64,000 nucleotides of DNA from the NCBI GenBank assembly GCA_964236465.1, contig CAXSBZ010000002.1, forward strand, positions 715 through 64,714. Direction: 5' to 3'. A model generated the notes under the pieces. That model searched no databases and was not told the DNA's origin. It saw only the letters and a list, made by a program, of their open reading frames with translations. How positions within the stretch are numbered: position 1 is the first letter of the stretch; each line of letters starts with the position of its first letter. The position numbers and the translations under genes were made by a program. Of this stretch, positions 1 through 64,000 are shown in pieces. This DNA is from an uncultured Sphingobacteriaceae bacterium (GTDB lineage: Bacteria; Bacteroidota; Bacteroidia; Sphingobacteriales; Sphingobacteriaceae).

Positions 1-2
1 TA

Positions 3-446
3 ATCAACCAATATATCAGAACGCCCGATAGCAGTTTTTCGCAAATGGGCTGGCATACGGATAGCCCGCGAGATATATTTTTAGGACAAAAAATTATGCC
101 GATGCTGAACGTAGGTATCCATTTGGATGATTGCCCGGCAGCAAACGGCGGCTTGCGCTTTTTGACCGGCACACATAAACAGGGAATTTTGAAACTGCTG
201 TTTGCCAAAAAATATTTTGTGGACAACAATGAAGACCCGCGCGAAACAGGTTTGGATATCCAAGCCGGCGACTTAACTATCCATGATGGCAGGCTTTGGC
301 ACCGCGTACAGCAATCACCTTTTACCGGGCTGAAAAGCAAGCGGCGCGTGATGTACATCCCGATCATTACCGGCAAATCTATCCTCAAACATGAGCACAG
401 CAAAACGCCTTTTTACCATCATTTTATTTCTAAAGTAAAATTTTAA
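3..446 (+). CDS. phytanoyl-CoA dioxygenase (PhyH) family Fe(II)/2OG oxygenase, 5'-truncated by window edge
   Basis: Frame 3 is open from nt 3 to the stop at 446, so the gene starts upstream of the window. WHTD (His-x-Asp), GGLRFLTGTH and a distal His (LWHRV) fit the PhyH family. Confidence 0.7.
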   Translation: MNQYIRTPDSSFSQMGWHTDSPRDIFLGQKIMPMLNVGIHLDDCPAANGGLRFLTGTHKQGILKLLFAKKYFVDNNEDPRETGLDIQAGDLTIHDGRLWHRVQQSPFTGLKSKRRVMYIPIITGKSILKHEHSKTPFYHHFISKVKF

Positions 447-464
447 TATTTGATCTTCATACAG

Positions 465-491
465 ATGGCTGGCTTTAAACCAGCCATTTTT
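465..491 (+). terminator. putative intrinsic terminator
   Basis: 8-bp stem ATGGCTGG/CCAGCCAT with a 7-nt loop, followed by TTTTT, 19 nt after the PhyH stop. Confidence 0.55.
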
Positions 492-504
492 AATTTTATA
501 CAAA

Positions 505-1278
505 ATGGCTTACGCATTAATCACCGGTGCCAGCAAAGGTATCGGCAAAGCAATTGCAACAGAACTTGCTTCGCGCAAAATAGATGTGCTGCTGGTAGCC
601 CGTTCTGCCGAAAAGTTGCAGCAACTTGCTGATGAACTCGGCAAAAAGTATGGCATAAAAACAGCATTCCTTGCCCAGGATCTATCCGCAGAGAACGCAG
701 CACAAGAGGTTTTTAACTGGTGCCAAAAAGAAAACTTCAGCATAAACATTTTAGTAAATAATGCCGGCTATGGTTTAAGCGGAAAATTTGACAAGTACAA
801 ATTAGAAGAAAACCTAAACATGCTGCAATTGAATATGATGGTTCCGGTTGCATTGACGCAACTGTTTTTACCACAACTATTAGCTCAACCCAAAGCTTAT
901 ATCCTGAATACAGCCAGCTCTGCGGCTTACCAATCGGTACCTGGTTTGGCTTTGTATGCTGCTTCCAAAGCTTTTTTGCTGAGTTTTAGCCGTAGTTTGC
1001 ACCAGGAATTAAAAAATAAAAATGTTTCGGTTACCTGCCTTTCTCCCGGTGCTACGGATACTGATTTTGTAGTTCGTGCGCAAATCGGCCCGAAAGGTTT
1101 AAAAGCTGCTAATCAGGTTAATATGACGCCCGAAGCAGTGGCGAAAATTGCCGTAAAAGCAATGTTGCGCGGCAAAGCAGAAATAATTGCCGGCACGATA
1201 AATAAACTGGGCGCATTTGTGAGCTGGCTGCTGCCCAAAACTATTGTGGAGCGTACGGCAATGAAAATCTATCAGTAG
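505..1278 (+). CDS. SDR family oxidoreductase (classical short-chain dehydrogenase)
   Basis: 257 aa with TGASKGIG (TGxxxGxG), NNAG and YAASK (YxxxK) motifs. Confidence 0.9.
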   Translation: MAYALITGASKGIGKAIATELASRKIDVLLVARSAEKLQQLADELGKKYGIKTAFLAQDLSAENAAQEVFNWCQKENFSINILVNNAGYGLSGKFDKYKLEENLNMLQLNMMVPVALTQLFLPQLLAQPKAYILNTASSAAYQSVPGLALYAASKAFLLSFSRSLHQELKNKNVSVTCLSPGATDTDFVVRAQIGPKGLKAANQVNMTPEAVAKIAVKAMLRGKAEIIAGTINKLGAFVSWLLPKTIVERTAMKIYQ

Positions 1279-1343
1279 CCGGTTCAATTTTTTTGTAGAA
1301 TGCTTCTTTTATCGTACATTTTTCAGAAACAAGTTTTGGCTTG

Positions 1344-1958
1344 ATGCGTTCTCCTCAAACACAAATTAAACTTGTTTTTATGAGCCAATATGAAAACGGT
1401 ATTTTAGATCAAAACGATGATCTGCATACAACATCTAATCAAAATAAAATAGTTTGGGATGGCGGAACTTACAGCAATAAGCCAACTACAACAGCTGATG
1501 TAGCCAAAAACGATGATATTGAACATGGGGATCATGGCAGCACAACTATGTCTCCAACCAATGATTTGCCCCGAGAAGCAGATGAAAGCAGCAGTTTTGA
1601 TACTGATGATGACGAAGATTTTGACGATACTGTTGGAGAAGACAATCTGGACGATGAAGACGGTTTTAATGCCAACAGCGATGACCCAACAGAAAGCGAG
1701 CTGACCAAAACCTGGATCGGCAATGAAAAAACAGTGCACGAAGCGGGTGCAAAAGGCATGGAAGGCGAACCAATGGGCGGACAAAATTTCGGCGTAAGCG
1801 AACTGGAACAAAAAAATAACCGGGATGCCAGCGATAGCGAGCATCATAGCTTAGGTTTAGGCAACTCTGCTTTGAACCAGCCAAGTGAAGAGATTTCCAA
1901 TCCACCGGAAATTGAACAAGGCGGAGAGCATCCTGATCGCAAGAAAATGGATGATTAA
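1344..1958 (+). CDS. hypothetical highly acidic low-complexity protein
   Basis: About 200-aa ORF, very Asp/Glu-rich (DDDEDFDD, EDNLDDEDG), with no recognisable domain. The start is ambiguous (TTG 1341, ATG 1344, ATG 1380). Confidence 0.5.
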   Translation: MRSPQTQIKLVFMSQYENGILDQNDDLHTTSNQNKIVWDGGTYSNKPTTTADVAKNDDIEHGDHGSTTMSPTNDLPREADESSSFDTDDDEDFDDTVGEDNLDDEDGFNANSDDPTESELTKTWIGNEKTVHEAGAKGMEGEPMGGQNFGVSELEQKNNRDASDSEHHSLGLGNSALNQPSEEISNPPEIEQGGEHPDRKKMDD

Positions 1959-1998
1959 ACGATAAATCGGTTTTAAAAAAATTACAAATGTAAAAAGA

Positions 1999-2569: not shown

Positions 2570-2637
2570 GATGCTTCTTTTATCAAGATAAAATTGGAGT
2601 CTCAATTTAAAAAACTAAATTTCTGTTTCTTTTTCGC

Positions 2638-3555: not shown

Positions 3556-3639
3556 TGCTTAAAATAAATAATGCTTCTTTTATCGGGTATTTTTTAGGGA
3601 AGTTATAGGTCTTACCATACGAAAAAAGCTTAAAAAAAT

Positions 3640-4261: not shown

Positions 4262-4333
4262 ATGTAGTTACAAAAAATGTATTACACATTATTTGTATTT
4301 TATATTGATAAAAGAAGCATTGCACATTGAAGA

Positions 4334-4406: not shown

Positions 4407-4415
4407 AATTGAACC

Positions 4416-6107
4416 TTATTTCCAATCCAGTTTTAGCAGTTCAACCGCCTGCCGTTCCAAGTTGATATTTATTTTTAATTGTCCATTTACCACAACCATT
4501 TCCTGCGGATTCCCGGCGGTTTGCAGCATCCCGGCTTTTTCCAGTTCTGCAATTTGTGCCGTTGTTGGTTGCTGCGGCGATCCCATTTTTTTCCAAAGAT
4601 TGTAAGAATTGCTATGGTTTTGATCGATCAAAAACCGCGAAACCTGAACCGTTTTTGCAGACAAATTATTTAAGTTGATGCTAATTGGCGATGCTGCTTC
4701 ATGCAAGTCATCATCATGATAATTCCACACCATCACGGCAGCTGTATTTTTATCTTTGGAAGCCAGCGCGCCAATATCCGTTCCGTTTCTGATGCTCGAA
4801 TCGCGTACTGTTTTTAGGGGGTAAAAATTGCTGCCGATGACTTCCACCCGCATTCCGCTCATCTTGCCAAACATCCGGAAAACATTTAAAACCGGTTTGT
4901 CCACACCATTCGTCGCCAGATCGCGGAAACCGTAAAACCAGGGCTGATCTTCAAACTCAAACGACCAGGAAACCGCACCTTTAAAGTTCACGCCGTACTG
5001 ATCGGCCAGCAAATATTCCCTCGCAAAAGAAGCAGCGGTATAACTGGAAAACATTGTGCCGTTGCGGTAAGCGTTTTCCGGGTTGGTTTGCATCCCGCAG
5101 GCCGCGCAGCCTTCCGGGTCAGATTCGCCGATGATGACAGGCAAATTTTGTGTCTGCGGATAGGATTTGACAATTTTAAAACCGGCCTCAATATCGCGCA
5201 GCTGCGTGCCCATGTTCATCCGCACCACGCCGTTGATCAGTTTGGGCGATCCTTTGACATGAAATAAAACGGCATCCAGCGGCGAACCAATTTTGCCGGT
5301 TACATAATTGGTATCCGAAATACAATGCTGCAAAAAGCCGCGCAAAAAATTCGTTCCGCCTGCGCCGCCTGTTCCGGCCACGTTGCAGCCACCGATTTTG
5401 GCCGTTGGCAAAGCGCGTTTTAAACCGTCGGCAGCGTAATCATACAGCTTATAAAACTCCGGCACGGTGCCTTTCCAATAATCGCCGTTGGGCTCGTTCC
5501 AAACTTCCCAATACCAGCTTTCTACCTCTTTTTGCCCGTACCTTTTCACACAATGTTTTGTCCATTCGTACACCAGATTGCCCCATTTTTGGTAATCTTT
5601 TGGCGGATAAGCCCAGCCGGTAATAATTTCTTTGTATGGATGGCCGGGCTGCCAGTGATGCCGGTACGGCTCGGGATGCGTGGACAAAGCTTCGGGCATA
5701 AACCCCATTTGCGCCAACGGTTTGATGCCGCGTTTGATGTATGCATCAAAAATCCGGTCCACAATCCTGAAGTCATAAACCGGTTTTCCGTTTTTGTCTT
5801 CGGTATAAATGTTGGTCGAACCCCATTTTAGCGCAGCCGTTCCGTCGCCGGAAGTCATTAAATTATGCGCTCGGAAGTAGACAGGATTTTTGCTCAGCGA
5901 GCCTAATTCTGAAAGCAGTTTTTGCCCGTCTTTCATGTAAGCGTAGTTGGGTTCATCGGCACCAAACCACGACCAGATCGGCCGCATCGGCGCAATTTCT
6001 TTGTTAAAATTTACTTCCAAAGAAGCCGGTGCACTTTGCGATTTTACCCCGATAAAAGAAGCAAACAGCAAAGCCAGGCAGCAAAGTTTTTTTACAGGTT
6101 CCTTCAT
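4416..6107 (-). CDS. secreted clan GH-A glycoside hydrolase, GH39-like (beta-xylosidase-like)
   Basis: 563 aa with a signal peptide (CCLALLFASFIGVKSQS). The WYWEVWNEPN catalytic acid/base block is typical of GH39/clan A. Confidence 0.65.
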   Translation of the reverse strand: MKEPVKKLCCLALLFASFIGVKSQSAPASLEVNFNKEIAPMRPIWSWFGADEPNYAYMKDGQKLLSELGSLSKNPVYFRAHNLMTSGDGTAALKWGSTNIYTEDKNGKPVYDFRIVDRIFDAYIKRGIKPLAQMGFMPEALSTHPEPYRHHWQPGHPYKEIITGWAYPPKDYQKWGNLVYEWTKHCVKRYGQKEVESWYWEVWNEPNGDYWKGTVPEFYKLYDYAADGLKRALPTAKIGGCNVAGTGGAGGTNFLRGFLQHCISDTNYVTGKIGSPLDAVLFHVKGSPKLINGVVRMNMGTQLRDIEAGFKIVKSYPQTQNLPVIIGESDPEGCAACGMQTNPENAYRNGTMFSSYTAASFAREYLLADQYGVNFKGAVSWSFEFEDQPWFYGFRDLATNGVDKPVLNVFRMFGKMSGMRVEVIGSNFYPLKTVRDSSIRNGTDIGALASKDKNTAAVMVWNYHDDDLHEAASPISINLNNLSAKTVQVSRFLIDQNHSNSYNLWKKMGSPQQPTTAQIAELEKAGMLQTAGNPQEMVVVNGQLKININLERQAVELLKLDWK

Positions 6108-6465
6108 TTTCGTTGAATTAGGTTTTAGCTATTTCGATTTTTTTATGTTGAAAATACTTCGACGCAAAATTGCACAATGTTTTGCTTCGTTGCCGGTTTT
6201 GTTCAATTTATACCCATGCAGCAGCCTTAACCATAGCGGGTTTTAGTTAATTATTTTTTAGGCTGAAGCTGCTCTCGGACCTTATCTGCAATAATACTTC
6301 CGATTATATAGCTTTCTGATTGTGAATAAAATATACTGTTTTTATCACCCTAAAATCGAAATGTAATATTTGCCTGCCCGATTTGTGAACGGGGAAAATT
6401 ATCAGCATAACTTGATTTGGCAAAACACGTACAACCTTGTTTAGCCTTTTTTAAGCCGGTAACGA

Positions 6466-12400: not shown

Positions 12401-15400
12401 ATTACACGTTCACCGGGACACAAAATATTTATGTGCGCCGCACGGTTACTTCCGGGCCTTGTACCCAAGTGAGTCAGCCGGTTTTGGTGATGGTGCAGCC
12501 AGCCATCAGCAACAATTCGGTTTCTGCGGATCAGGTGATTTGCTACAATGATCTTCCTTCAGTTTTAACCGGAAGTACGCCTGCCGGTGCCGATGGAAAC
12601 TTTATTTACCAATGGCAGCAAAGCACAGATGGCGGCTCGGCTTGGGCCAATATCAACGGTGCAAACGGGATTAATTATCAACCCAATGCTTTAACCGCAA
12701 CCACGCAATTCCGCCGGATCATCACTTCCGCACTTTGTACCGGTTTACAGCAAAGCATCAGCAATACGGTGATTATCAGCGTAACGCCTCAAAATACCAA
12801 CACCGTAACCAGCGATGCCAGCCGCATTATTTGTACCGGCACTACTTTCAGCTATCATCCAACGGCACAGCAAGACAATACTGTTTTTACATGGGTTTCT
12901 TCGGCAACAGCCAACATCAGCGGAAACTCGGCCAGCGGTTCGGGCGACATCAGCGAAGTGCTGACCAATTCTGACCCGAACAACAACGGCACAGTTACCT
13001 ATACCATCACTCCAATCAATAATAATTGCCCGGGAAATCCTTTTAAGCTAACCGTTACCGTTACACCAATTCCACGCGTAACTATCACCCATGATGGCAA
13101 CCGCATTTGCAGCGGTAACCCAACCGGCATTACTTTTACCACCAATAATCCGGATGTTTTGTTGAAGTGGACGTTTGATCGTGTGCAGGGAATTCATGGT
13201 GCAAACGATCAATATCCGGTTAAGGCCACGCGGATTGATGATATTTTGAGTTCTGAATTAACAACGGAAGCCACCATCATTTACCACATCACGCCGAGTA
13301 GTCCGGGTGGCTGCGAAGGCCCGACCATGGATGCCAAGGTTACCGTTTTGCCGCAAGCTGTTCAAGCAAATGCCGGGCCGGACGAGCAAATTTGCAGTAG
13401 CAATAATTACACTTTTAAAGGAAATGAACCTGCTCCTTCTACCGGCAACTGGACACTGACTTCCGGCCAGTTGGGTATCGGTTTTGCAGATGCCAGCAAA
13501 TACAACACCACCGCAAATGGCTTGCAGCCGGGCCAGACTTATACTTTCCGCTGGACGATCAGCAGTCCGGGAAATTGCAGTTCTACTTCGGATGATGTGG
13601 TGATTGCCGATTTGAAAGCTATTACCAACAACATCAGTTTTGCCAGTCCGGCGGTTTGCTACGGACAAACGATCACGATAACCGGCAACCAGCCAAGCGG
13701 TGGAACCGGAAGCTTCGTTTATGCCTGGGAAATTAGTATGGATAATAGCAATTGGACAATAGTTAATGGACAAACCAATCCGTCTTATTCCTTCACCGGA
13801 ACCCAAAATGTTTATGTGCGTCGGGTGGTTACTTCCGGGCCTTGTACCAGCATCAGCCAGCCGGTTTTCATCACCGTACAGCAGCCGATCAGCAACAATA
13901 CCATTGCTGCCGATCAGCAGGTTTGCTACAACAGCGCGCCAAATTTAATGACCGGAAGTGCACCTGCCGGAGCCGACAGCCGCTACACTTACCAATGGCA
14001 AAGCAGCACGGATAACGGTGCCACCTGGACAAATATTTCCGGTGCGATTTTGCAGGATTATCAGGCTGCTCAACTAACCGTTTCTACCTCGTATCGCCGC
14101 GTAGTAAGTTCGGCTTTATGTACCGGCCCGCAGCAAAGCCTCAGCAACACCATCAAAATGACGGTGAACCCGCTGCCGGTTGCCGCTTATACTTTTACCA
14201 AAGACTTGGCCTGTATCCCTTTTGCCATCACTGCGGATAATATCAAAGCAACCGCTTCGGATGCCAATAGTGTTTATGCCTGGTATGCAGACGGAACCTT
14301 GATCGGCACCGGCCTCGCTTTCCCTGGTTACACCATCAATACAGATGATGCACACGTGGGAATTAAATTGGTAGCCACCAGCAAATACGGTTGCCCGGAT
14401 GCTGTTTTTACCCATGTTTTTTCTACGATAAAAGAAGTATCGGCTGGTTTCAGCCAAAACCAAACTAAAGGCTGCGGCCCGCTCACGGTTACTTTCAGCA
14501 ATACTTCCAGCCCGCAAAACCTGGCCACGTATTCCTGGAACTTTGGCAACGGAAGCACTTCAACCCAAGCCAATCCCGGCCCGATAACGTATTTGGCACG
14601 TGCGGATGGTAAAGACACCACCTATACCATCACGCTGAAAGCCATGACCACTTGCGGCATCCGCACGGCAACTTCAACCGTAACTGTTCGCCCAAAACCA
14701 ACTTCCATTTTCACGCCTGACAGAACGACGGGTTGCTCTCCGCTGACGGTTAATTTCAACAACACCTCTCCCGGAACCGGCAACACTTATACTTATGATT
14801 TTGGTGATGGCACAACGCAGGTTACGCAGGATAATCAACCGGTAAACCATACGTACATCGCCCCAAACAACAAAGTTTTCACGGTGAAAATGACGGCGCA
14901 AAACGAATGCGGCATCAGCACAACATCCTACAAAATCAGCATTTCGCCAAATACGGTTTTGCCGCAAATGATTGTGGACGGCGATCAGAAAGCGGGTTGC
15001 GCGCCCTGGACGGTCCAGTTTCATAACAACACCAAAGGCGGCACTTATTTTACGTATGATTTTGGCGATGGCACCACGCTGTCTTCCGTAAATGCGCCGG
15101 AAGTGGTGAGCCATACTTTCCTGAAAGACGGTATTTTCAACGTAAAAATGACGGCTACGAATGGTTGTTCCGATACTTCGGCTTATCAATCCATTACCGT
15201 TTATCCGCAGCCGGTGGTTGGTTTTGTGGCCGATGTACGAAGCGGTTGTACGCAGCTGACGGTCAACTTTACCAATAAAACCGCCGGCAACAACACGTAT
15301 TTGTGGGATTTTGGTGATGGCAGCACTTCAGTTTCAGCTAATCCGACACATACTTTCCAATCCCGGAGCACGCCGTACACCATCAGCCTGATTGCTAAAA

Positions 15401-16035: not shown

Positions 16036-16053
16036 TTTGGGTTTGGGTTTTTA

Positions 16054-16102
16054 GGTTGATAAAAGAAGCATTGATTTTAATTGGATGCTTCTTTTATCAA
16101 CC
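16054..16102. repeat. palindromic doublet of the family-1 repeat (GGTTGATAAAAGAAGCAT-N13-ATGCTTCTTTTATCAACC)
   Basis: Perfect 18-bp inverted arms, 19 nt downstream of the adhesin stop, followed by a T-run. Could act as a terminator. Confidence 0.9.
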
Positions 16103-16221
16103 TTTTTTTGTAAAAAATATAATTAGAAAGTTCAATAGGATTAGAAATCCTTAGCTCAAAGGACGGGGTTACAAACCCCGACCAGTGGAGAACGATGCCG
16201 ACAGAAGGTTGATGAAAAATA

Positions 16222-16264
16222 GGTTGATAAAAGAAGTATAGCTGTAATACTTCTTTTATCAACC
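16222..16264. repeat. second palindromic doublet of the family-1 repeat (GGTTGATAAAAGAAGTAT-N7-ATACTTCTTTTATCAACC)
   Basis: Perfect 18-bp inverted arms. It differs from the 16054 doublet by a paired C>T / G>A change in both arms. Confidence 0.9.
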
Positions 16265-16283
16265 TAAAATACTAAATTTGATC

Positions 16284-16750: not shown

Positions 16751-16815
16751 TAAAGAAACTGGATTTCATTACCATACTTCTTTTATCAACCTTTTTTCAG
16801 TAACCAATCAAACAA

Positions 16816-19992: not shown

Positions 19993-20016
19993 ATGCTTCT
20001 TTTATCTACCTAAAAT
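19993..20016 (+). repeat. family-1 repeat, full 24-nt form ATGCTTCTTTTATCTACCTAAAAT
   Basis: Exact 14-mer core plus the N4-CTAAAAT tail. It abuts the stop codon of the S53 peptidase gene at 20017. Confidence 0.9.
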
Positions 20017-21567: not shown

Positions 21568-21723
21568 TTTTTTTTAAAGATAAAGATTAAATTTAATTTT
21601 TACTAAAAAAATTAGCAAATTATTTTTTGTCATGCTGATTTTAAGCCGATAAAAACAGCATCTGCATAAAGCTATTTTTGAACGTAATTTTTGATTATTC
21701 CTGTATCTGCAATAAAATTAATT

Positions 21724-21782: not shown

Positions 21783-21830
21783 CTGTGATAATTTAAGCGG
21801 ATACTGTTTTTATCGACCTAAAATTGGCGA

Positions 21831-24479: not shown

Positions 24480-24540
24480 ATCGAATTAAATGCTTCTTTT
24501 ATGCCCTAATTTTCAAAATCAAACAAAATATTAAACATCA

Positions 24541-25442: not shown

Positions 25443-25677
25443 GTTAAAGATATTAAGTTTCAAAACAAACGTGATTGGCCTGCCCTTGTTTGGAAAAACC
25501 TTGGGCACAATATAAACCATTGAAGATCAATATTTTTTAAAATTATTATTTAACCGGAGAAAAAATCAAAAACCGGATGCTTCTTTTAACACATAAAAAT
25601 CAGGATGATGAAATTTTATGTTGAAAATTTTTAGCTTTATCCGCTACTGAAATACAAATTTAAAAAAACCTTATTTT

Positions 25678-26544: not shown

Positions 26545-26587
26545 GATTTTAGTACGATAAAAGAAGCATTATGCAATATTGATAATT

Positions 26588-26617: not shown

Positions 26618-26752
26618 TGAAAGATGAATGCTTCTTTTATGGGGGTAAAAAAAGCATAGCTTAAAAACAGACAAGCTTATCTTATCAATTTAAAACATCC
26701 TCCTAATTTAATACAGATTGATTTGTTAGCTTGCATTAAATTTCAAATCATT

Positions 26753-27787: not shown

Positions 27788-27811
27788 ATGCTTCTTTTAT
27801 CGGGTAAAAAT
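27788..27811 (+). repeat. family-1 repeat ATGCTTCTTTTATCGGGTAAAAAT
   Basis: Exact 14-mer core starting immediately after the TAA stop at 27785-27787. Confidence 0.9.
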
Positions 27812-30763: not shown

Positions 30764-30800
30764 AAATTGGAAAGCTTAATGCTTCTTTTATCAGCTGAAA

Positions 30801-42324: not shown

Positions 42325-42388
42325 GACTTTTAGTAAAGAAATCTATCCTTAAAAATAGGTGGTAAAAGAAGCATCGTTTTTTGCCCAT

Positions 42389-42609: not shown

Positions 42610-42939
42610 TCAAAACAAATGCCACCGCTTTTTCACTTGCACATAAATCCCGTCTTGGCGCATTTCCACCGGAAAAACATCAATATAATCACCTTGTCCG
42701 GCTGCGCCTTTTCCGGTTTCTAGATTGTATTGATAACGGTGTAGCGGACAAATAATTTGTCCGTTTTCGCACCAGCCGCCAGCCAGTTCGCCTCCAGCGT
42801 GCGGACATTTTGAAGAAACTGCATATAGTTCTCCTTCAAAACCAACTAAACAAATATTTTGGTTTCCGACTTTGATTTTTCGGATGAATGCTTCTTTTAC
42901 CGGTATATTTTCGGCAACTTTTATCCATTCCAACATCAA
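42610..42939 (-). CDS. Rieske [2Fe-2S] domain protein (NirD-like size)
   Basis: 109 aa. CPHAGG and CPLHRYQY form the CxH...CxxH Rieske ligand pattern. Confidence 0.8.
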   Translation of the reverse strand: MMLEWIKVAENIPVKEAFIRKIKVGNQNICLVGFEGELYAVSSKCPHAGGELAGGWCENGQIICPLHRYQYNLETGKGAAGQGDYIDVFPVEMRQDGIYVQVKKRWHLF

Positions 42940-43703
42940 TATTCTACTTTTAAATTCAGCAGCTGCGGCGTTTTTACGATTTCCTCCAAAGTGCTGTTCA
43001 AAGTCAGCTGCTTTTTGTCCGGAGAAAGTTTTGCACGTACATTTCCGGCCTTTTTTACCGGCCGCGGAAAACGCATTGTTATGCTGTAAGGCATTTCAAT
43101 CAGTGCAGCTTTTGCCATATTAAACATGGCTTCGTTTTGCTTAAAATATTTCCTGAACTTCACCGTATCCACTTTTCGGGTAAAATGCTTGCTGCCGATG
43201 TCGTAATTAAAATAATCTTCGTTGATGCCTAAGCCTCCACTGCTTGCTCCGGTTTGCATTACCTGAGGTTCGCTGATTAACTGTCCGATTTTTTGCTGCT
43301 GCGCAATGTTGGAAATATGCGTTAAAAAATATTTTACTTCCTTGGCGCTCTTGGCTTCGTACTGCACATTAACCAGCATCTGGTTATTTTTTAGGTTCAT
43401 TTTCAGGTGCAGCAGTGTAGCACGGGACAAATCAGTCTGGTCATTACTTAGTTTTTTTCGTTCGGCTTCTGTTAAATCACTATAAAAATTAATAGCTGTA
43501 TCCTTCTGCATCAAATACGAGGGTGTTTGCTTTACCGAATCCGGCAGCAAGTTGGAAAGCACAGAAACCGCCTTGCCCAAATTAAAACGGTAATCGATTT
43601 TGCAGGCACCATTTTTCTGAAAAACGTAATGCTCCTCCACGTTCATACACGAAAAAAGTAGTGATAAAAGAAGCATCAACATTCCAAAGTAAAGTTTCTT
43701 CAT
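42936..43703 (-). CDS. hypothetical lipoprotein
   Basis: Start at MKKLYFGMLMLLLSLLFSC (lipobox). No recognisable family. Overlaps the Rieske gene by 4 nt. Confidence 0.5.
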   Translation of the reverse strand: MKKLYFGMLMLLLSLLFSCMNVEEHYVFQKNGACKIDYRFNLGKAVSVLSNLLPDSVKQTPSYLMQKDTAINFYSDLTEAERKKLSNDQTDLSRATLLHLKMNLKNNQMLVNVQYEAKSAKEVKYFLTHISNIAQQQKIGQLISEPQVMQTGASSGGLGINEDYFNYDIGSKHFTRKVDTVKFRKYFKQNEAMFNMAKAALIEMPYSITMRFPRPVKKAGNVRAKLSPDKKQLTLNSTLEEIVKTPQLLNLKVEY

Positions 43704-44478: not shown

Positions 44479-46371
44479 ATGCGAAAACTGTGGATGCTTC
44501 TTTTATGCCTTAATTTTTCTGCTTTTGCCCAAAAGCAATTTTCAACCAATAACAAAGAAGCGATTAAATTTTATGCCCTGGCCAATGAAAGTATTAATTA
44601 CCAACAATACGATCAGGCCATTGCGCAATTAAACCAGGCGATTGCAGCGGATGAACAGTTTGCAGAAGCGCACAACCAGCTGGGCAATGTGTATCGGTAC
44701 AAACACCGGAATGCCGAAGCTTTTACAGAATTTACGCGGACGATTGCCCTCAACCCAAACTATAACCACGCGGTTTATTTAAATTTAGGTGATGTGGATT
44801 TGATGCTTGGCAAATATGCGGAAGCGAAAACTGTGTTGCAGCAATATCTGGCTTTCAATGAAATTTTGCCGAAAGATCGAGCCAATGCACAAAAGCTTTT
44901 GGTAGATTGTGATTTCAGTTTACAGGCAGTTCAGCATCCGGTTGATTTTAAGCCTGTTAACTTAGGAAATGCCGTTAATTCTTCTGCGGATGAATACTTG
45001 CCAAACGTTACCGCGGATGAAAGTACGCTGATTTTTACCCGAAAAATTGGCAGTAATGAAGATTTTTACATCAGCAAAAAAATCAATGGGCAATGGGGAA
45101 ACGCTGTTGGTTTGAGCAATAAGATCAATACGCCAGAATTTAATGAAGGTGCGCAATCGCTTACGCAAGATGGTCAATATCTGTTTTTTACGGGTTGCAA
45201 CCGGCCGGATGGGCGCGGCCGCTGCGACATATTTTTATCCCATAAAAACAGTACTGACTGGGATAAACCGTTTAACCTGGGCGAACCGATCAATACGCCG
45301 GGCTGGGAATCCCAGCCTTCAATCAGTGCCGATGGGCGGACGTTGTATTTTGTGAGTTTGCGCAAAGGCGGTTATGGCGGATATGACATTTGGAAATCGC
45401 ATCTAACGGACAAAGGCTGGGCTGAACCGGAAAATTTGGGTCCAAATATCAACACACCTTACGATGAACAGTCGCCATTTATCCATCCTGACGATCAAAC
45501 GCTGTATTTTAACTCTAACGGCTGGCCGGGTTTGGGTGGAAAAGATTTGTTTTTGAGCCGGAAAGACAAGGATGGCAAATGGCAAAAACCTGAAAACTTA
45601 GGTTATCCGATCAATACAGGAGGTGATGAAAATGGTTTAACACTTACTGCCAATGGTAGTTATGCTTTCTTCTCTTCCAACAATTTGAAAGGTGCCGGCG
45701 GCTATGATATTTACACGTTTGAGCTGCCCGAAAAGCTGCGTCCAACTGTGGTAACTTATGTAAAAGGCACGGTAAAAGATGCACGCAGCAAACAGGCGAT
45801 TGATGCCGATGTGCAGATTGTAGATTTGAAAACCAACCAGCTCATTTTTCAAAATGTGAATGCGCTGAACCAGGGAAATTTTTTGGCTACGCTGCCAACC
45901 GGCAAAGATTATGGGTTGAATATTTCCAGGCCGGGCTACTTGTTTTATTCTGAAAACTTCTCGCTGAGCGGCCAAAATGCTGGAAAGCCGTTTGTGATTG
46001 ATGTGGCTTTGCAGGCGATTGAAGCCGGTAAAAAATCGGTGTTGCGGAATATTTTTTTCGATACCAATAAATTTACGCTGAAGTCGGAATCAAAATCTGA
46101 ACTGGAAAAACTGATTGCTTTTTTAAACCTCAACCCAAAAGTAACGATCGAAATTTCCGGTTTTACTGATAATGTGGGCGATGCAAAATCGAACCAAATT
46201 TTGTCGGAAAATCGTGCAAAAGCAGTTTATCAGTATTTAATTACCAATAAAGTTTTGCCGGCAAAGCTGACTTTTAAAGGTTATGGCGCGATGCAGTTTA
46301 TCGCCCCAAATACAACTGAAGAAGGCCGTAGCAGAAATAGAAGAACGGAATTTAAAATTGTTTCTTTTTAG
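44479..46371 (+). CDS. OmpA-family outer-membrane/peptidoglycan-associated protein with TPR and TolB-like (PD40) repeats
   Basis: About 630 aa with a signal peptide, TPR-like N-terminus and repeated PD40-type blocks (E..P.IS.DG..LYF). The C-terminal OmpA motif is FDTNKF...NRAKAV...RRTEF. Confidence 0.85.
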   Translation: MRKLWMLLLCLNFSAFAQKQFSTNNKEAIKFYALANESINYQQYDQAIAQLNQAIAADEQFAEAHNQLGNVYRYKHRNAEAFTEFTRTIALNPNYNHAVYLNLGDVDLMLGKYAEAKTVLQQYLAFNEILPKDRANAQKLLVDCDFSLQAVQHPVDFKPVNLGNAVNSSADEYLPNVTADESTLIFTRKIGSNEDFYISKKINGQWGNAVGLSNKINTPEFNEGAQSLTQDGQYLFFTGCNRPDGRGRCDIFLSHKNSTDWDKPFNLGEPINTPGWESQPSISADGRTLYFVSLRKGGYGGYDIWKSHLTDKGWAEPENLGPNINTPYDEQSPFIHPDDQTLYFNSNGWPGLGGKDLFLSRKDKDGKWQKPENLGYPINTGGDENGLTLTANGSYAFFSSNNLKGAGGYDIYTFELPEKLRPTVVTYVKGTVKDARSKQAIDADVQIVDLKTNQLIFQNVNALNQGNFLATLPTGKDYGLNISRPGYLFYSENFSLSGQNAGKPFVIDVALQAIEAGKKSVLRNIFFDTNKFTLKSESKSELEKLIAFLNLNPKVTIEISGFTDNVGDAKSNQILSENRAKAVYQYLITNKVLPAKLTFKGYGAMQFIAPNTTEEGRSRNRRTEFKIVSF

Positions 46372-46468
46372 GGGAAATTAAAGCCGATGCTTCTTTTACA
46401 GGTGTTTTTTCAGTACGATTTTATATGGGTAAAAGAAGCATTTGCACTTATTTAAAGTCCAACTGCAA

Positions 46469-46492
46469 ATGCTTCTTTTATCGGCCTAATTT
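46469..46492 (+). repeat. family-1 repeat ATGCTTCTTTTATCGGCCTAATTT overlapping the recQ stop codon
   Basis: Exact 14-mer core. The CTA at 46486-46488 is the reverse complement of the recQ TAG stop. Two more copies lie at 46387-46400 and 46417-46441. Confidence 0.9.
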
Positions 46493-50044: not shown

Positions 50045-50091
50045 GTTTTAGGGTGATAAAAGAAGCATCAGCTGATACTTCTTTTATCAGC
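50045..50091. repeat. palindromic doublet of the family-1 repeat centred on CAGCTG
   Basis: GATAAAAGAAGCATCAGCTGATACTTCTTTTATC, preceded by GTTTTAGGGT (tail of the 24-nt form). Lies between convergent genes. Confidence 0.85.
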
Positions 50092-50968: not shown

Positions 50969-50991
50969 AATGCTTCTTTTATCAACCTAAA
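50969..50991 (+). repeat. family-1 repeat ATGCTTCTTTTATCAACCTAAAT
   Basis: Exact 14-mer core. Its 3' end abuts the first DnaA box at 50991. Confidence 0.9.
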
Positions 50992-52812: not shown

Positions 52813-52836
52813 ATGCTTCTTTTATCGACCTAAAAT
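52813..52836 (+). repeat. family-1 repeat, consensus form ATGCTTCTTTTATCGACCTAAAAT
   Basis: Exact core plus tail. A reverse copy lies at 52886-52909. Confidence 0.9.
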
Positions 52837-52939
52837 CTGAAAGTTTATTGTCCTTTTTCTTTAATTGTATTGATTACAAAATCAAGATTTACAGGCATAA
52901 AAGAAGCATCCTATTTTCTAAACAAAATTGAACAGACGC

Positions 52940-55291: not shown

Positions 55292-56272
55292 ATGCCTGTT
55301 TTAATTTATGCGGAAAATACGAAAGGCCGGTTTAAAAAAGCCGTGTTGGAAACTGTTTGTTATGCCAAAGCGGTTGCAGATCAACTCAATACAACCGTGA
55401 TTGCTTTATCGATTGGTGAGGTTTTGCAGGAGGAACTGAAGAAGCTCGGAAATTATGGCATAAAAAGAGTATTGAACGTTTCCGGTCAGCAAAAAACTTT
55501 GATCAATCAGGCTTACGCTTCGATTATTGCTGAGGTTGCTGAAAAGGAAAATACAGATGTGGTTATCCTTTCCAACTCCTTGTCTGGCAGAGGTTTAGTT
55601 GCACGGATTGCTGTAAAGCTGCAAGCCGGACTGGCGGATGGTGCGACAGATCTGCCGGAAACAGCAAATGGAAAATTCATCATCAAAAAAACCGCTTTTT
55701 CGGGTCGAGTCGCCGCTGTGGTGGAACTGACTTCAGTCAAAAAAGTGATTTCCCTCAACTCAAATGTTTTCAAACTCATTGAAAATAAAGCAGTTGTCGA
55801 GGTGGAAGATTTTATGCCGATAAAAGAAGCATCAAATTTTAACATCTTGGTGAAAGATATTTTACAGTCAACCGAAAAAGTTTCTTTACCGGATGCTGAA
55901 ATTATTGTCTCGGCAGGAAAAGGTTTAAAAGGGCCGGAAAACTGGAAAATGGTGGAAGATCTGGCCGAGGCATTGGATGCAGCAGTTGCCTGCACCAAAC
56001 CGGTTTCCGATGCCGGCTGGCGGCCGCACGAGGAGCATGTTGGGCAAACCGGAATTTCTGTGAGCCCGAATTTGTATATCGCTATTGGTATTTCGGGTGC
56101 CATCCAGCATTTGGCCGGTGTGAGTGCTTCAAAAGTGATCGTAGTGATCAACAAAGATCCGGAAGCACCGTTTTTCAAAGTGGCCGATTACGGTATTGTA
56201 GGCGATGCGTTTGAGATCGTACCAAAATTAACAGAAGCTATAAAAAATTATAAAGCACTGGCTTTAAGCTAA
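55292..56272 (+). CDS. etfA: electron transfer flavoprotein subunit alpha
   Basis: 326 aa. The C-terminal FAD-binding block is VGQTGISVSPNLYIAIGISGAIQHLAG. Confidence 0.9.
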   Translation: MPVLIYAENTKGRFKKAVLETVCYAKAVADQLNTTVIALSIGEVLQEELKKLGNYGIKRVLNVSGQQKTLINQAYASIIAEVAEKENTDVVILSNSLSGRGLVARIAVKLQAGLADGATDLPETANGKFIIKKTAFSGRVAAVVELTSVKKVISLNSNVFKLIENKAVVEVEDFMPIKEASNFNILVKDILQSTEKVSLPDAEIIVSAGKGLKGPENWKMVEDLAEALDAAVACTKPVSDAGWRPHEEHVGQTGISVSPNLYIAIGISGAIQHLAGVSASKVIVVINKDPEAPFFKVADYGIVGDAFEIVPKLTEAIKNYKALALS

Positions 56273-58256: not shown

Positions 58257-58300
58257 ATTTTTGTGTGATAAAAGAAGCATTGAGTATCTTAATGCACGTT

Positions 58301-58415: not shown

Positions 58416-58485
58416 GCACACGAGTTACACAAAAAAGCCTTCGTTTCCAAAAGCTTCTTTTATCACCTAAAATTTATAACCGAAA

Positions 58486-59872: not shown

Positions 59873-60916
59873 TCAGGCCAATATTTCATAAACGGTTGCC
59901 GGCAGGGCTTTGTTTTTCAGCGTAACCTGCCCTATTTTTTGTATGGTAAAAGAAGCATTGGCCTGCTGATAAACTTGTTCGTTTACCAAAATCTGGCTGG
60001 GTTTGGCGGCAGATTGCAGGCGTTGTGCGGTGTTGACCGAATCGCCGATAACAGTATAATCCAGCCTTTTGAGCGAAATCGAACCGATATTACCGGAAAC
60101 CATTTCGCCGGAATTGATGCCGATAGAAATTTTAGGCTGAAAAATTTTGTTTCCTGCGGAGATTTCTGGCACCGTGCCCAATTGCGCTTTTACGGCCAAT
60201 GCCGATTGAATAGCACGTTGCAAATGATTTTCGCCTTTAAAAACAGCCATCACTGCATCGCCGATAAATTTATCTACGTGCCCTTGCTGCGCAATAATTT
60301 CTTTCACAATCTGATCAAACAAGCTATTTAACAAATGCACCACCGTGTTTGCCGGAACCTGTTCTGTAATCGAGGTAAACTCACATACATCCACAAACAT
60401 GATGGTAGCTTCGATCACTTCATTTTTCATCAGGTTGCTTTCAAATTCCTTGTGCGTCATAAAGTTGAGTACATTTTCATCCACATACATTTTCAGGATG
60501 TCGTTTTCCTTAATGGCTTTCAACGTTTCCTGCAACTGCCGTACATGCCGGATAGTTTTTTCCATCGTAAGGTCGAGATCTTCAAAATCCACCGGCTTCA
60601 CCACAAAATCAAATGCACCGCGGTTCATGGCCGTGCGGATGTTTTGCATATCGCCGTAAGCAGAAACCACTACCGCTTTCAGCATCGGGTTGGCTTCCGG
60701 CAGCCGGCTCAAAAGTGTCAGGCCGTCCATCACCGGCATATTAATGTCAGACAAAATAATGTCCAGATCAGGATGTTCCTTTACTTTTTGCAGTGCTTCT
60801 TCTCCGTTTCGGGCGAAAATAAATTCGTACAGATTGTCCCTGATTTTGCGGCGAAACTTCTGCTTCACCAGCAGTTCCAAATCCGGTTCATCATCCACCA
60901 CTAAAATCTTTGCCAT
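59873..60916 (-). CDS. response regulator fused to a class III adenylate/guanylate cyclase domain
   Basis: 347 aa. REC domain (ILVVDDEPD...ILSDINMP). The cyclase blocks are [39 protein letters not shown] and [14 protein letters not shown]. The start overlaps the upstream RR stop (TAATG). Confidence 0.85.
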
Positions 60917-61937: not shown

Positions 61938-61952
61938 TATTAAATATAATTA

Positions 61953-63299
61953 TTAAATTTTTAAAGGTAAGTTAATCAAAAACTCTGAACCTTCACCTAC
62001 TTCACTCTCCACCTCCAGCTTCCCGCCGTGCCCTTTTACCACAATATCATAGCTCAAACTCAAGCCCAAACCTGTTCCTTCGCCGGTTGGTTTTGTGGTG
62101 AAAAATGGCTGCAAAATTTTGTCCTTTACAGCTTCCGGTATTCCCGTTCCGTTGTCCTTTACTTTGATTACCAAAAAAGTATCGGTAAAAGAAGTATCGA
62201 CCATAACTTCCGGTTTGTAATCGGTTCCGGCTGTTTTTTGCTTTTGTTGCACAGCATAAAAAGCGTTGTTAAAAAGGTTTAATAAAACCCTGCCAATATC
62301 CTGCGGAATGATACTGATTTTAGGCAAATTTTCCTGAAAATGCGTGGTCAAAGCAGCGTTAAACGATTTGTCTTTTGCACGCAAACCGTGGTAGCTCAGC
62401 CGCAAATATTCATCTGCCAAAACGTTCAAATCTGTCAACTGCCGCTCGCCGCTGTTGTTGCGCGAATGTTGGAGCATGCCTTTTACAATACCATCGGCGC
62501 GCTTGCCGTGGTGGCGTATTTTTTCTAAATTTTGCTTGATGTCTGTTGCAATCGCCGATGCTTCTTTTACATCACCTTTTTCCATTTCTTCTTCCATCTC
62601 GTCCAATAGTTCAATGCTGACTTCAGAAAAATTATTCACAAAGTTCAACGGGTTTTGAATTTCGTGCGCAATTCCCGCGGTTAGTTCGCCCAGTGAAGCT
62701 AACTTTTCGGATTGGATCAACTGATCTTGTGTCGTCCGTAATTCTGCCAAAGCGTGCTGCAGTTCATCTTTTTGATTGAGCAATTCCGCCGTTCTTTCCC
62801 GCACCAAAACTTCCAGTTCTACTTTACGCTCGGCAATGGCTTTATTTTGCAATTCTTCCAGCCGCCGCTCTTCCAGTTCTTTTTTCCTGACTTTTTCCTG
62901 CCGGTTGGAAATAAACCAGGTTGCAAAAACCCAAATAAAAGCCAGCAACTTCGCTGTTTCAAAATAGTTGTGCCATTTTTGATACAGCTCATTATCAAAC
63001 AATATTAAAAGATTTTTCAATATAGAAACTGCAATATAAGGCAGCACGCTATAAGCAAGATTACGAACCTGTTGCAAAGTTTTTTCTTGATAAACGAGAT
63101 AGATTATTGCAAGTAAAGAAATGTCCCATATCCATTCTGTTACAATCTTATACTCATCTGCCACAATAAAAAAAACCAGCAGCACAATGTTAACTATAAA
63201 CGCAGTTTTTGCCCAGTGGTCCCATTCCGTCGGATGTGAAACTTTTTTTAAATTATTTCGGATAGCACGAATCAGGAAAAAAACAAATAAAAATTGCAC
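61953..63299 (-). CDS. membrane-bound sensor histidine kinase
   Basis: 448 aa with four or five N-terminal TM helices, a coiled-coil, the H-box LTAGIAHEIQNPLN, N-box NLFNNAFYA, G1 DNGTGI and G2 GTGLGL. Confidence 0.85.
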   Translation of the reverse strand: MQFLFVFFLIRAIRNNLKKVSHPTEWDHWAKTAFIVNIVLLVFFIVADEYKIVTEWIWDISLLAIIYLVYQEKTLQQVRNLAYSVLPYIAVSILKNLLILFDNELYQKWHNYFETAKLLAFIWVFATWFISNRQEKVRKKELEERRLEELQNKAIAERKVELEVLVRERTAELLNQKDELQHALAELRTTQDQLIQSEKLASLGELTAGIAHEIQNPLNFVNNFSEVSIELLDEMEEEMEKGDVKEASAIATDIKQNLEKIRHHGKRADGIVKGMLQHSRNNSGERQLTDLNVLADEYLRLSYHGLRAKDKSFNAALTTHFQENLPKISIIPQDIGRVLLNLFNNAFYAVQQKQKTAGTDYKPEVMVDTSFTDTFLVIKVKDNGTGIPEAVKDKILQPFFTTKPTGEGTGLGLSLSYDIVVKGHGGKLEVESEVGEGSEFLINLPLKI

Positions 63300-63327
63300 G
63301 GTAACAATTATTTGAGGTTGAAAAATA

Positions 63328-63357
63328 ATACTGTTTTTATGCCGGTAAAAACAGTAT
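63328..63357. repeat. palindrome of the diverged family-1 subtype (ATACTGTTTTTA-TGCCGG-TAAAAACAGTAT)
   Basis: 12-bp perfect inverted arms. Same subtype as 6333-6356, 21801-21824 and 55281-55305. Confidence 0.8.
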
Positions 63358-63490
63358 CGGCAATATAATAAAGATCGGCTGAAAGGTTTTATGTAACATC
63401 AAAAACGCTGAAAAAATACACCATTTTCCTGCTAATGATTTTGATTTTGTGTATCAAAACAATTCTATACAAAAAAGAATTGTTATTTGT

Positions 63491-63498
63491 ACATTTGC
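63491..63498 (+). promoter_or_regulatory. possible Bacteroidota -7 promoter box (TACATTTG = TAnnTTTG)
   Basis: Consensus match 26 nt upstream of the queA ATG. No well-spaced -33 TTG is seen. Confidence 0.3.
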
Positions 63499-63524
63499 GC
63501 CCTGAAATTTATTACGTTAAAGCA

Positions 63525-64000
63525 TGAAATTATCTCAATTTAAGTTCAACCTGCCGGAATCATTAATTGCACATTCTCCATCAGAAAAACGGGACGAAGC
63601 CCGGTTGATGGTGCTGCACAAAGATTCGGGCAAAATTGAGCATAAAATTTTTAAAGATGTTTTGGATTATTACGATGATAAAGACGTGATGATCCTGAAC
63701 AACACCAAAGTTTTTCCGGCCCGTTTGTATGGCAACAAAGAAAAAACGGGTGCTACCATCGAGGTTTTTTTGCTGCGCGAACTAAACAAAGAGCTTCGTT
63801 TGTGGGATGTTTTGGTTGATCCGGCCCGAAAAATTCGTGTGGGCAACAAGCTTTATTTTGGTGATGATGATTTGTTGATTGCCGAAGTGGTGGACAATAC
63901 GACTTCGCGCGGCCGTACCATCCGGTTTTTATTTGACGGAACGGACGAAGAATTCAGAAAAAATGTAGAGATTTTGGGCGAAACTCCGCTTCCGAAATAC
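63525..64000 (+). CDS. queA: S-adenosylmethionine:tRNA ribosyltransferase-isomerase, 3'-truncated by window edge
   Basis: Not in the ORF track because there is no stop inside the window. The translation [31 protein letters not shown]...[10 protein letters not shown]...GETPLPKY matches the conserved QueA N-terminal half. Confidence 0.9.

Follow-up and report, generated by a model that had tools for sequence, protein, structure and literature searches.

Why should a single 14-nucleotide (nt) word recur dozens of times in one stretch of bacterial DNA, on both strands and inside as well as between genes? The question is raised by 64,000 nt of contig CAXSBZ010000002.1 (assembly GCA_964236465.1, positions 715 to 64,714; hereafter the window), from an uncultured Sphingobacteriaceae bacterium, in which the 14-mer ATGCTTCTTTTATC had been predicted from the letters alone to be an uptake-sequence-like genomic word. 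Here we show that the word belongs to a longer unit, shared by a whole clade and maintained at the DNA level. We tentatively favor a recognition signal of the kind represented by the DNA uptake sequences (DUS) of Neisseriaceae and the uptake signal sequences (USS) of Pasteurellaceae, and weigh this reading against three others as the evidence that bears on them is presented.

The 14-mer forms the core of a longer, asymmetric unit

All 21 exact copies of ATGCTTCTTTTATC counted in the original prediction were recovered, 12 on the forward and nine on the reverse strand, and every coordinate held but one, the copy placed at 50969 being really at 50970 (Table 1). Not one exact copy arose in 100 of 100 dinucleotide-preserving shuffles of the window. 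About 20 near copies had also been claimed. The 19 positions listed each carry a copy with one mismatch, and in total we found 57 copies with up to two mismatches where 1.16 were expected: 21 exact, 20 with one mismatch and 16 with two. When the window was combined with related loci, cumulative counts at zero, one and two mismatches were 259, 497 and 720, the possible 14-mer variants in these classes numbering 1, 42 and 819. Copy number thus drops with mismatches while the number of possible variants rises, which argues that perfect copies are either actively kept or recently made.

A logo of 468 copies from the window and related genomes defined a unit, R-ATGCTTCTTTTAYC-RNCC-TAAAATT, that is asymmetric and spans about 26 nt. 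Its parts are a near-invariant core (ATGCTTCTTTTAYC), some four bases under weak constraint (RNCC) and an A/T tract (TAAAATT), and the logo showed no conservation beyond the unit on either side. In the window, no longer repeat contains the word, so the word is not the end of a larger element. The longer consensus and the TTTTA-N6-TAAAA dyad proposed for intergenic copies are real, but the logo gives the spacing as ATC-N3-CTAAAAT and not N4.

Three positions of the core vary: position 3 is G or A, and positions 6-7 are TC or GT. The degenerate family reads AT[GA]CT[TG][CT]TTTTA[TC]C. We counted 78 occurrences of its 11-nt core in the window (64 kb) and 892 in the 764 kb of related loci, or about once per 0.85 kb. 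Variant copies do occur where a 'diverged subtype' had been listed (ATACTGTTTTTATC at 6333 and 21801, ATACTGTTTTTATG at 55281 and 63328, ATGCTGTTTTTATC at 21648 and GTACTGTTTTTATC at 48769, the last two on the reverse strand), but they are members of this one family and do not form a separate subtype. Species-specific dialects were rejected, the same mix of variants being present in all genomes sampled.

As had been noted, no strand polarity of the exact copies is visible along the window, and no switch of strand. At 14-26 nt, the word is much longer than the known Chi sites or FtsK-orienting polar sequences (KOPS), and in its ~26-nt form it covers about 3% of the DNA. A literature search with the 14-mer returned a single match, to an unrelated primer.

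The word is shared across a Mucilaginibacter-like clade

Species-representative genomes of GTDB were scanned with the 23-mer ATGCTTCTTTTATCNNCCTAAAA, which has 21 specified bases and for which we estimated about 0.3 chance matches. At least 99 stretches matched. Among the matches listed, all came from one Mucilaginibacter/Sphingobacteriaceae group comprising Mucilaginibacter arboris HMF7410, several Mucilaginibacter and Sphingobacteriaceae metagenome-assembled genomes (MAGs) and three MAGs labelled Janthinobacterium lividum. Eleven genomes could be identified among the matches listed, each with 1.0-1.4 cores per kb. The retrieved loci exclude the window's own genome, and the best DNA identity to the window among the matches listed is ~84%. 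At least 12 species of the Mucilaginibacter-like clade, a soil- and lichen-associated lineage, carry the word.

Further loci were fetched by means of the PIF1-like helicase protein encoded in the window. As these were not selected for the word, they provide an unbiased sample. The helicase marks the clade, relatives having 71-87% protein identity before values drop to 59% or less. Per 22.5 kb, two clade members contained 28 and 25 cores, as compared with 3 in Rubrolithibacter, 1 in a Pedobacter and 1 in a metagenomic outgroup. The 23-mer gave no match in 2.9 million viral contigs, where the bare 14-mer gave single chance matches only. The motif is therefore not confined to this region, the density stated above being found in every clade genome sampled, and the expected conservation in related genomes holds across the clade and ends at the three outgroup Sphingobacteriaceae. 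We conclude that the word is genome-wide, clade-wide and clade-specific.

The three MAGs labelled J. lividum (JBPBQN01, JBPBPL01 and JBPBQV01; loci L122, L124, L129, L133 and others) have a GC content of 37-41% and are full of the word. Given this GC content, their orthology to Mucilaginibacter loci and the many copies they contain, they are almost certainly Sphingobacteriaceae under a wrong label. The word was diagnostic enough to expose them.

Copies within genes arise by substitution and are maintained at the DNA level

The PIF1-like helicase gene contains three exact copies and one near copy. An alignment of 17 proteins shows each of the four sites to be collinear with both clade members and outgroups. 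The sole length difference near them is a single-residue gap at the site of amino acid (aa) 583 that separates the whole clade from the outgroups, so that no eight-residue insertion has occurred. The residues encoded by the word fall at variable positions, AIKEAS in the window corresponding to EIKQPV and QLKVVT in relatives. In a three-species alignment of syntenic DNA, the exact copy at 35532 corresponds, one base to one base, to sequence other than the word in the two relatives, and that at 35710 to a one-mismatch form in both. The proposed check of insertion against substitution showed that coding copies differ from their homologues by substitutions only, without insertions or deletions.

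We then made 87 comparisons of a coding site with its orthologue, taking flanks from the same open reading frames (ORFs). Identity between species at third codon positions was 0.897 within the 11-nt core as against 0.627 in the ±90-nt flanks (p = 6e-28), while first and second positions barely differed (0.93 in the core, 0.89 in the flanks). Given this conservation at third positions, we conclude that maintenance of the word acts on the DNA and does not depend on the protein. Of 122 copies in aligned orthologous DNA, 81 were kept with at most one mismatch, where ~13% would be expected at the flank identity of ~77%. Among 49 sites in the three-way alignment, 13 are common to all three species, the remainder being common to two species or species-specific in indel-rich DNA. 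Orthologous sites sometimes swap the TC and GT variants. No clean insertion or target-site duplication was seen at three presence/absence sites, which are ambiguous because the intergenic DNA is too diverged.

Conservation of DNA inside genes and retention at orthologous sites are also consistent with a site for an abundant, clade-specific DNA-binding protein unrelated to uptake, kept by selection for genome-wide coverage. Such a protein might be a nucleoid organizer, a roadblock or termination factor, or a self-DNA marker for repair or defence. Orientation independence and restriction to one clade fit this explanation as well, and an asymmetric core with an A/T tract is typical of protein-DNA recognition with bending. 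Compared with molecular drive, however, selection acting site by site at ~5000 sites, a total extrapolated from sampled loci, would impose a heavy load. No nucleoid or regulatory protein is known to us whose specific site of 14-26 bp is present thousands of times per genome, ORFs included; the genome-wide words of this density and length known to us are uptake sequences or mobile repeats. We regard a binding site of this kind as unlikely.

The word accumulates at gene ends in either orientation

Positions relative to genes were analyzed in 873 kb (88% coding) after removal of seed copies. Copies with up to one mismatch lay inside ORFs in 31% of cases, and density was 2.5 per kb in intergenic DNA as against 0.16 per kb in coding DNA, a difference of about 16-fold. 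Convergent intergenic regions were the densest (5.9 per kb), followed by tandem (2.5 per kb) and divergent ones (1.5 per kb). Single copies within 40 nt after a stop codon showed no orientation bias, 63 being sense and 67 antisense to the gene; within 80 nt upstream of a start codon, 31 were sense and 57 antisense, a mild bias (p = 0.007). This bias and the concentration at gene ends would both be in keeping with a bound protein.

Many copies abut or overlap a stop codon, as had been observed, and some supply it, either through the TAA in GATAAAAG or through TA|ATGC. The earlier estimate of about 16 window copies in ORFs is replaced by counts of 14 of 41 (up to one mismatch) and 24 of 57 (up to two). 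In the 873 kb, copies within ORFs occupy several reading frames, as claimed: five of the six are used, and the one that reads TAA never is. The encoded peptides (ASFI, MLLLS, IKEAS, DKRS) often lie in signal peptides or variable segments. Genes with at least two internal copies comprise the PIF1-like helicase (in three species), RecG and a ComEA-like helix-hairpin-helix (HhH) protein, the rest of this small sample being metabolic. DUS are biased towards genome-maintenance genes (10.1101/2025.10.24.684340), and the multi-copy genes give a suggestive echo of that bias.

A promoter role was rejected because density peaks between convergent genes and orientation is unbiased. The Bacteroidetes -7 box is TAnnTTTG, which the word tail loosely resembles, only with three A's, and a scan of the window for sigma-70-type promoters gave 52 matches against 47.6 in shuffles, no excess. 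Judged by eye against the consensus sequences, neither an IHF-like site nor a sigma-54 promoter fits.

Inverted pairs form predicted hairpins

Pairs of copies no more than 40 nt apart are mostly inverted, with 48 head-to-head and 38 tail-to-tail (86 in all) versus 9 direct. Gaps between cores are 0, 3, 6, 12-20 and 34 nt, a variety that misfits a fixed dimer site for a binding protein. Four forms are preferred. Some pairs make a compact hairpin with a 12-bp stem and a 6-nt loop; in others, the A/T tails of two full units overlap; others again, with a core gap of 0, are perfectly palindromic over ~46 nt; and there are head-to-head pairs with 12-18-nt loops. Pairs are predicted to fold strongly, with z about -5 to -10; for single units (z -0.1, -0.5), predicted folding is no stronger than in shuffles. 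A T-run on one side gives 30 of the 48 head-to-head pairs a terminator-like look, and 13 have A-tails on both sides, so that neither transcript would carry a U-run. Inverted-repeat DUS and USS sit in terminators (10.1101/2025.10.24.684340). Inverted pairs had been noted just downstream of genes, and the pairs with a T-run likewise appear to sit in predicted terminators.

The spacer bases of paired copies are usually complementary between arms, and G-U-compatible changes occur in the arms. The hairpin at 16045..16110 is kept in species CAXTKQ (L137), where its loop has diverged. At 63328, both arms are of the GT variant in the window; the orthologue in species CAZZVO (L131) reads ATGCTTCTTTTA-TCGCCC-TAAAAAAAGCAT, with both arms of the TC/TT type, so that the two have changed together. 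Complementary spacers and the switching of both arms point to selection on hairpin structure.

Is the word then primarily an RNA-level element, the stem of intrinsic terminators or of mRNA 3'-end stabilizers, with single and coding copies as by-products? The very strong folding of pairs, the T-runs, the preservation of some hairpins across species with diverged loops, the G-U-compatible changes and the peak of density between convergent genes could all be accounted for in this way. However, 852 of ~1020 cores are unpaired and do not fold, post-stop singles lie in either orientation (63 versus 67), the 13 pairs with two A-tails do not suit it, and copies in ORFs and between divergent genes are conserved too. 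Ordinary GC-rich terminators without the word are also present in the same window. We consider a primarily RNA-level element very unlikely.

The local transposase and repetitive extragenic palindromic elements

Sequences of the repetitive extragenic palindromic (REP) kind are mobilized by REP-associated tyrosine transposases (RAYT), and a RAYT gene had been claimed at 61342-61803. A Y1 transposase gene does exist there (Pfam Y1_Tnp), but it scores as IS200-type and not as a RAYT: against NCBIfam, the protein reached 79 bits with the IS200/IS605 model (cut-off 55) and 28 bits with the RAYT model (cut-off 80). On one side only, the gene is accompanied by two inverted 51-nt arms (61821-61871 and 61887-61937) with GTAG-tagged, GC-rich palindromes AACGGGTTAAAACCCGTT, which occur nowhere else in the window, are rare in related loci and do not contain the word. 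At this locus, the word does not flank the transposase, the window's only one of the Y1 class. Species CAZZVO (L131) retains the gene in the corresponding place, so that it may be domesticated.

A REP-like or miniature mobile hairpin would have two inverted copies as its full element, arranged as the compact 30-nt hairpin or in a longer head-to-head or tail-to-tail form, moved by a Y1 or other transposase encoded elsewhere, with single copies as decayed or half elements. The likeness to REP and REPIN families is considerable. Both are short, very abundant and located downstream of genes and above all between convergent genes, some copies of both supply stop codons, and both show long vertical inheritance. 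Head-to-head and tail-to-tail dimers predominate in REP families and REPs in replication and repair genes are on record (PMC3733652); here, too, such dimers far outnumber head-to-tail ones. The complementary spacers, the joint change of both arms at 63328, the copies found in one species only in indel-rich intergenic DNA and the presence of a Y1 gene in the window would also suit a mobile element.

REPs carry a GTAG or CGTC tag at one end, and intragenic REPs are insertions (PMC3733652). In contrast, the logo of our word has neither tag, and copies in ORFs derive from substitution without added residues, their synonymous sites being conserved across species. The unit is not palindromic, and compact hairpins are made by a minority of copies only. 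A single unit forms no stem-loop, yet it is the commonest and best-conserved form, and its tail consensus is TAAAATT and not a decayed second arm. Pairs have many spacings and no single fixed architecture, the window's Y1 gene is flanked by palindromes of a different kind and falls below the RAYT cut-off, and the three ambiguous presence/absence sites show no clean insertion with target-site duplication. Thus, of five REP characters, four are lacking (palindromic unit, tag, flanking of a RAYT within the window, extragenic or insertion-derived copies) and one, dimer predominance, is present. We consider a REP-like origin quite unlikely. A miniature inverted-repeat transposable element was rejected on the lack of conservation outside the 26-nt unit, the variable pair spacings and the lack of target-site duplication at the presence/absence sites.

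A candidate uptake signal

Most sequence-level hallmarks of uptake sequences, as the original prediction had proposed, are found in the word, and we retain that interpretation as a hypothesis with good support. Like the DUS of Neisseriaceae (AT-GCCGTCTGAA and its dialects), the word occurs about once per kb on both strands, is common to related species and kept at orthologous sites, lies within ORFs in stop-free frames only, is strongly enriched in intergenic DNA, forms predicted terminator hairpins as inverted pairs and has extra copies in DNA-maintenance genes. It differs in its host phylum (Bacteroidota versus Proteobacteria), in its unrelated sequence and in being longer and bipartite, with a 14-nt core, a spacer and an A/T tract over ~26 nt. 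Several variants coexist in each genome here, as opposed to one dialect per species, and no ComP-type receptor or type IV pilus was identified in the loci examined.

The resemblance to the USS of Pasteurellaceae (core AAGTGCGGT with A/T-rich flanks) lies in coding copies that arise by point substitution in permissive segments and in inverted pairs that serve as terminators, a role predicted here. In USS, as in the word, the core is asymmetric and an A/T-rich segment lies a few bases beyond it; the core of the word is longer and richer in A/T. A further comparison is offered by the cyanobacterial HIP1 (GCGATCGC), which is over-represented in coding and non-coding DNA of one lineage, is born by substitution and has an unresolved function. 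HIP1, however, is an 8-bp perfect palindrome linked to methylation, as against an asymmetric word of 26 nt.

Together, the asymmetric unit, origin by substitution, synonymous constraint, orientation independence, clade-wide sharing and terminator pairs, along with the four REP characters that are lacking, favor an uptake or self-recognition word of the DUS/USS kind, whose pairs would have been co-opted as terminator stems. We put this reading at slightly below an even chance. The word would then be a clade-specific recognition signal in double-stranded DNA, read by a component of the natural-transformation uptake machinery. Fragments carrying it would be taken up and recombined more often, and mutations that create or improve a copy would be over-transmitted, a form of molecular drive by which existing copies would also be kept. 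Copies might accumulate where they are tolerated: after or overlapping stop codons, between convergent genes, and in signal peptides and variable segments in stop-free frames. Inverted copies would form long hairpins, many of which, having a T-run, may have been co-opted as stems of intrinsic terminators. What we infer is that the reader is an uptake receptor, that the lineage is competent and that drive rather than selection is at work.

Several observations weigh against an uptake signal. A literature search on natural competence in Mucilaginibacter found nothing relevant. The sole competence-type gene seen in the loci examined encodes the ComEA-like protein of M. arboris, and many bacteria that are not competent also have such genes; the same loci yielded no receptor candidate. 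Most USS lie in ORFs, versus ~31% of copies here, and the ~16-fold intergenic enrichment is stronger than that known for USS. Enrichment of this order, the head-to-head and tail-to-tail dimers and the arms that change together are equally REP-like, complementary spacers and a joint arm switch at an orthologous site being seen likewise in REP-like elements. Known DUS (12 nt) and the USS core (9 nt) are also poorer in information than the motif. Finally, known DUS are reported to be depleted in recently acquired DNA. Window-specific segments, delimited with tblastx, showed no significant depletion of the word as a whole, with 6 cores in 6 kb as compared with 1.25 per kb elsewhere (p = 0.83).

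The ComEA-like protein (L164 2597-3517, reverse strand, in M. arboris WPIK01000004) is a tandem-HhH protein that matches TIGR00426 with 67 bits (cut-off 53). It has two HHH_3 domains, its gene carries two near word copies in the N-terminal linker region, and a XerC/D-type integrase gene lies downstream.

To our knowledge, uptake sequences are known from two proteobacterial families only, and a literature search on uptake sequences or competence in Bacteroidota or Mucilaginibacter yielded no description of the word. Within Bacteroidota, Riemerella columbina prefers self DNA, with no motif identified (PMC7965970). With more reserve than the reading above, we suggest as possible that the word is the first sequence-specific signal for DNA uptake, or self-recognition, outside Proteobacteria, a bipartite ~26-bp word read by a receptor in the Mucilaginibacter-like clade. 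The lineage would then be capable of natural transformation, with a preference for DNA exchange among members of the clade. If so, it would be a third, independent case of uptake sequences, in another phylum, and sequence-biased transformation would evolve repeatedly. There would be a new receptor to look for, and a lineage not known as competent would be flagged as transformable, which would be useful for the genetics of Sphingobacteriaceae; M. arboris HMF7410 appears to be a cultured isolate. Even without an uptake function, the word is a strong and unexplained DNA-level signal that constrains synonymous sites in at least 12 species, and it is relevant to gene calling, terminator prediction and binning.

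Copies in the window and neighboring features

Table 1. Copies of the word in the window, alone and in pairs, with context and conservation; L223, L224 and L127 are related loci.
Feature	Position	Strand	Context and conservation
Exact copy	1300..1313	+	Intergenic, 21 nt past stop of ORF 505-1278
Exact copy	2571..2584	+	Antisense to ORF 2093-2605(-), at its 5' end or just upstream
Exact copy	3571..3584	+	Intergenic, 15 nt upstream of start, ORF 2638-3555(-)
Exact copy	4307..4320	-	Intergenic, adjoins different small repeat 4330-4361
One-mismatch copy	6051..6064	-	Signal peptide of GH39 ORF (FASFI)
Variant copy ATACTGTTTTTATC, ACCCTAAAAT tail	6333..6346	+	Intergenic
One-mismatch copy	14427..14440	-	Inside PKD/T9SS ORF
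Two-copy hairpin and T-run, terminator-like	16045..16110	+	20-bp stem; -30.5 kcal/mol, z -7.9
Exact copy	16058..16071	-	Left arm, head-to-head pair after 3189-aa PKD/T9SS gene
Exact copy	16085..16098	+	Right arm of 16058 pair, then TTTTTTT
Head-to-head pair of ATACTTCTTTTATC (16226-, 16247+)	16220..16266	-	20-bp stem, minus-strand T-run, z -9.9
One-mismatch copy	16774..16787	+	Intergenic, T-run tail
Exact copy, full tail TACCTAAAAT	19993..20006	+	Between convergent genes; kept in L223, L224
Variant copy ATGCTGTTTTTATC	21648..21661	-	Intergenic; kept in three species
Variant copy ATACTGTTTTTATC, GACCTAAAAT tail	21801..21814	+	Intergenic
One-mismatch copy	24490..24503	+	10 nt past sigma-54 activator stop; kept in JBGCVY (L127), L223, L224
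One-mismatch copy	25577..25590	+	Between divergent genes
Exact copy	26556..26569	-	Antisense to ORF 26143-26544, 11 nt past its stop
Compact tail-to-tail hairpin ATGCTTCTTTTA-TGGGGG-TAAAAAAAGCAT	26628..26657	+	Absent at site in L223, L224
Exact copy	27788..27801	+	Abuts stop codon of ORF 26723-27787
Exact copy	30779..30792	+	Between convergent genes
One-mismatch copy	31406..31419	+	Intergenic
Exact copy	32420..32433	-	Between divergent genes; word kept in three species, L223 has ATGCTGTTTTTATC
Variant copy ATACTGTTTTTATC	32890..32903	+	DinB ORF; identical in three species
One-mismatch copy	33294..33307	-	DinB/IMS polymerase ORF; identical in three species
Exact copy	34545..34558	+	PIF1-like helicase ORF, antisense, IKEAS ~aa 583; L224 differs by substitutions
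One-mismatch copy	34661..34674	-	Helicase ORF, sense, MLLLP ~aa 545; kept in three species
Exact copy	35532..35545	+	Helicase ORF, antisense, IKEAS ~aa 254; window-specific, several substitutions, no indel
Exact copy	35710..35723	-	Helicase ORF, sense, ASFI ~aa 195; relatives ATACTTCTTTTATC (TSFI)
One-mismatch copy, full tail GACCTAAAAT	38567..38580	-	Fructosamine-kinase ORF; common to L223
One-mismatch copy	42361..42374	-	Intergenic; kept in L223, L224
One-mismatch copy	42888..42901	+	Near start of ORF 42610-42939(-)
Exact copy	43663..43676	-	Inside lipoprotein-type signal peptide (MLLLS); kept in three species
One-mismatch copy	44494..44507	+	N-terminal signal region, TPR/OmpA ORF (MLLLC)
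Three-copy cluster (46387+, 46428-, 46469+)	46387..46482	.	Between convergent genes; nested hairpins
Head-to-head pair (50055- exact, 50075+ one mismatch), then T8	50055..50088	.	After ORF 48915-50000; terminator-like, z -4.9
Exact copy	50970..50983	+	Between divergent SpoU methylase and DnaB genes
Tail-to-tail pair (52813+ exact, 52896- one mismatch), 69 nt apart	52813..52909	.	Between convergent genes; segment missing in M. arboris
Exact copy	55819..55832	-	ETF-alpha ORF, antisense (IKEAS)
Exact copy	58267..58280	-	10 nt past stop of nucleoside-transporter ORF
One-mismatch copy	58451..58464	+	Intergenic, 21 nt from citrate synthase stop
One-mismatch copy	59945..59958	-	Response-regulator/cyclase ORF (ASFT)
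Compact hairpin, GT variant, ATACTGTTTTTA-TGCCGG-TAAAAACAGTAT	63328..63359	+	z -4.1

Two other repeats lie close to copies of the word. A second, partly palindromic family, TTGTCATTTCGACC-NNNN-GGGAGAAATCT, occurs at 4330-4361, 19945-19979, 42480-42511, 42545-42570 and 58299-58333, with about 12 copies in 809 kb of related loci, and in four places it stands 12-25 nt from the ATG end of a word copy. A third, hairpin-forming repeat, ATTGTCATGCCGAACTTGTTTCGGTATC, at 4359-4409 and 42387-42437, directly adjoins copies of the second family. The PKD-domain protein of 3189 aa, encoded at 6466-16035 (+) and bearing a CHU_C type IX secretion signal, includes four to five tandem 1383-nt repeats (~8.7-14 kb), three of which carry the variant ATACTGTTTTTACA, copied by domain duplication.

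An EcoRV-like restriction endonuclease and a D12-class N6-adenine methyltransferase are encoded at 27964-29798 (GC 0.34). The syntenic regions of L223 and L224 lack this stretch, so that a restriction-modification island was probably acquired here recently. An AAA_21/AAA_15 ATPase and DUF4276 pair at 36379-38173 (GC 0.34) looks like a defence system. A similar pair lies beside the helicase gene in L224, and AAA_15 and HicA toxin genes lie nearby in L223; these differing defence genes indicate that the spot beside the helicase is a variable hotspot. The gene bodies of both low-GC systems are without the word. A YoeB toxin and Phd-YefM antitoxin pair at 30801-31348 (-) is located in a window-specific segment bounded by the words at 30779 and 31406.

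At its gathering score, Rfam identified only RNase P RNA in the window, and a tRNA scan identified none. The RNase P RNA, of bacterial class A (262 bits), occupies 22597-22985 (+) and is followed by a GC-rich terminator at 22997-23029; owing to the overlap, the 123-aa ORF at 22585-22956(-) is spurious.

The word copy at 50970 is identical at 14 of 14 positions in M. arboris despite diverged flanks. Beside it, just upstream of dnaB (51196-52776), two DnaA-box-like sites TTATCCACA lie in tandem at 50992-51000 and 51011-51019 (+). Perfect matches to this sequence number four in the window (0.6 expected), the others being at 32098-32106 (+) and 32383-32391 (-). The tandem boxes may mark a promoter under DnaA control or belong to an origin region.

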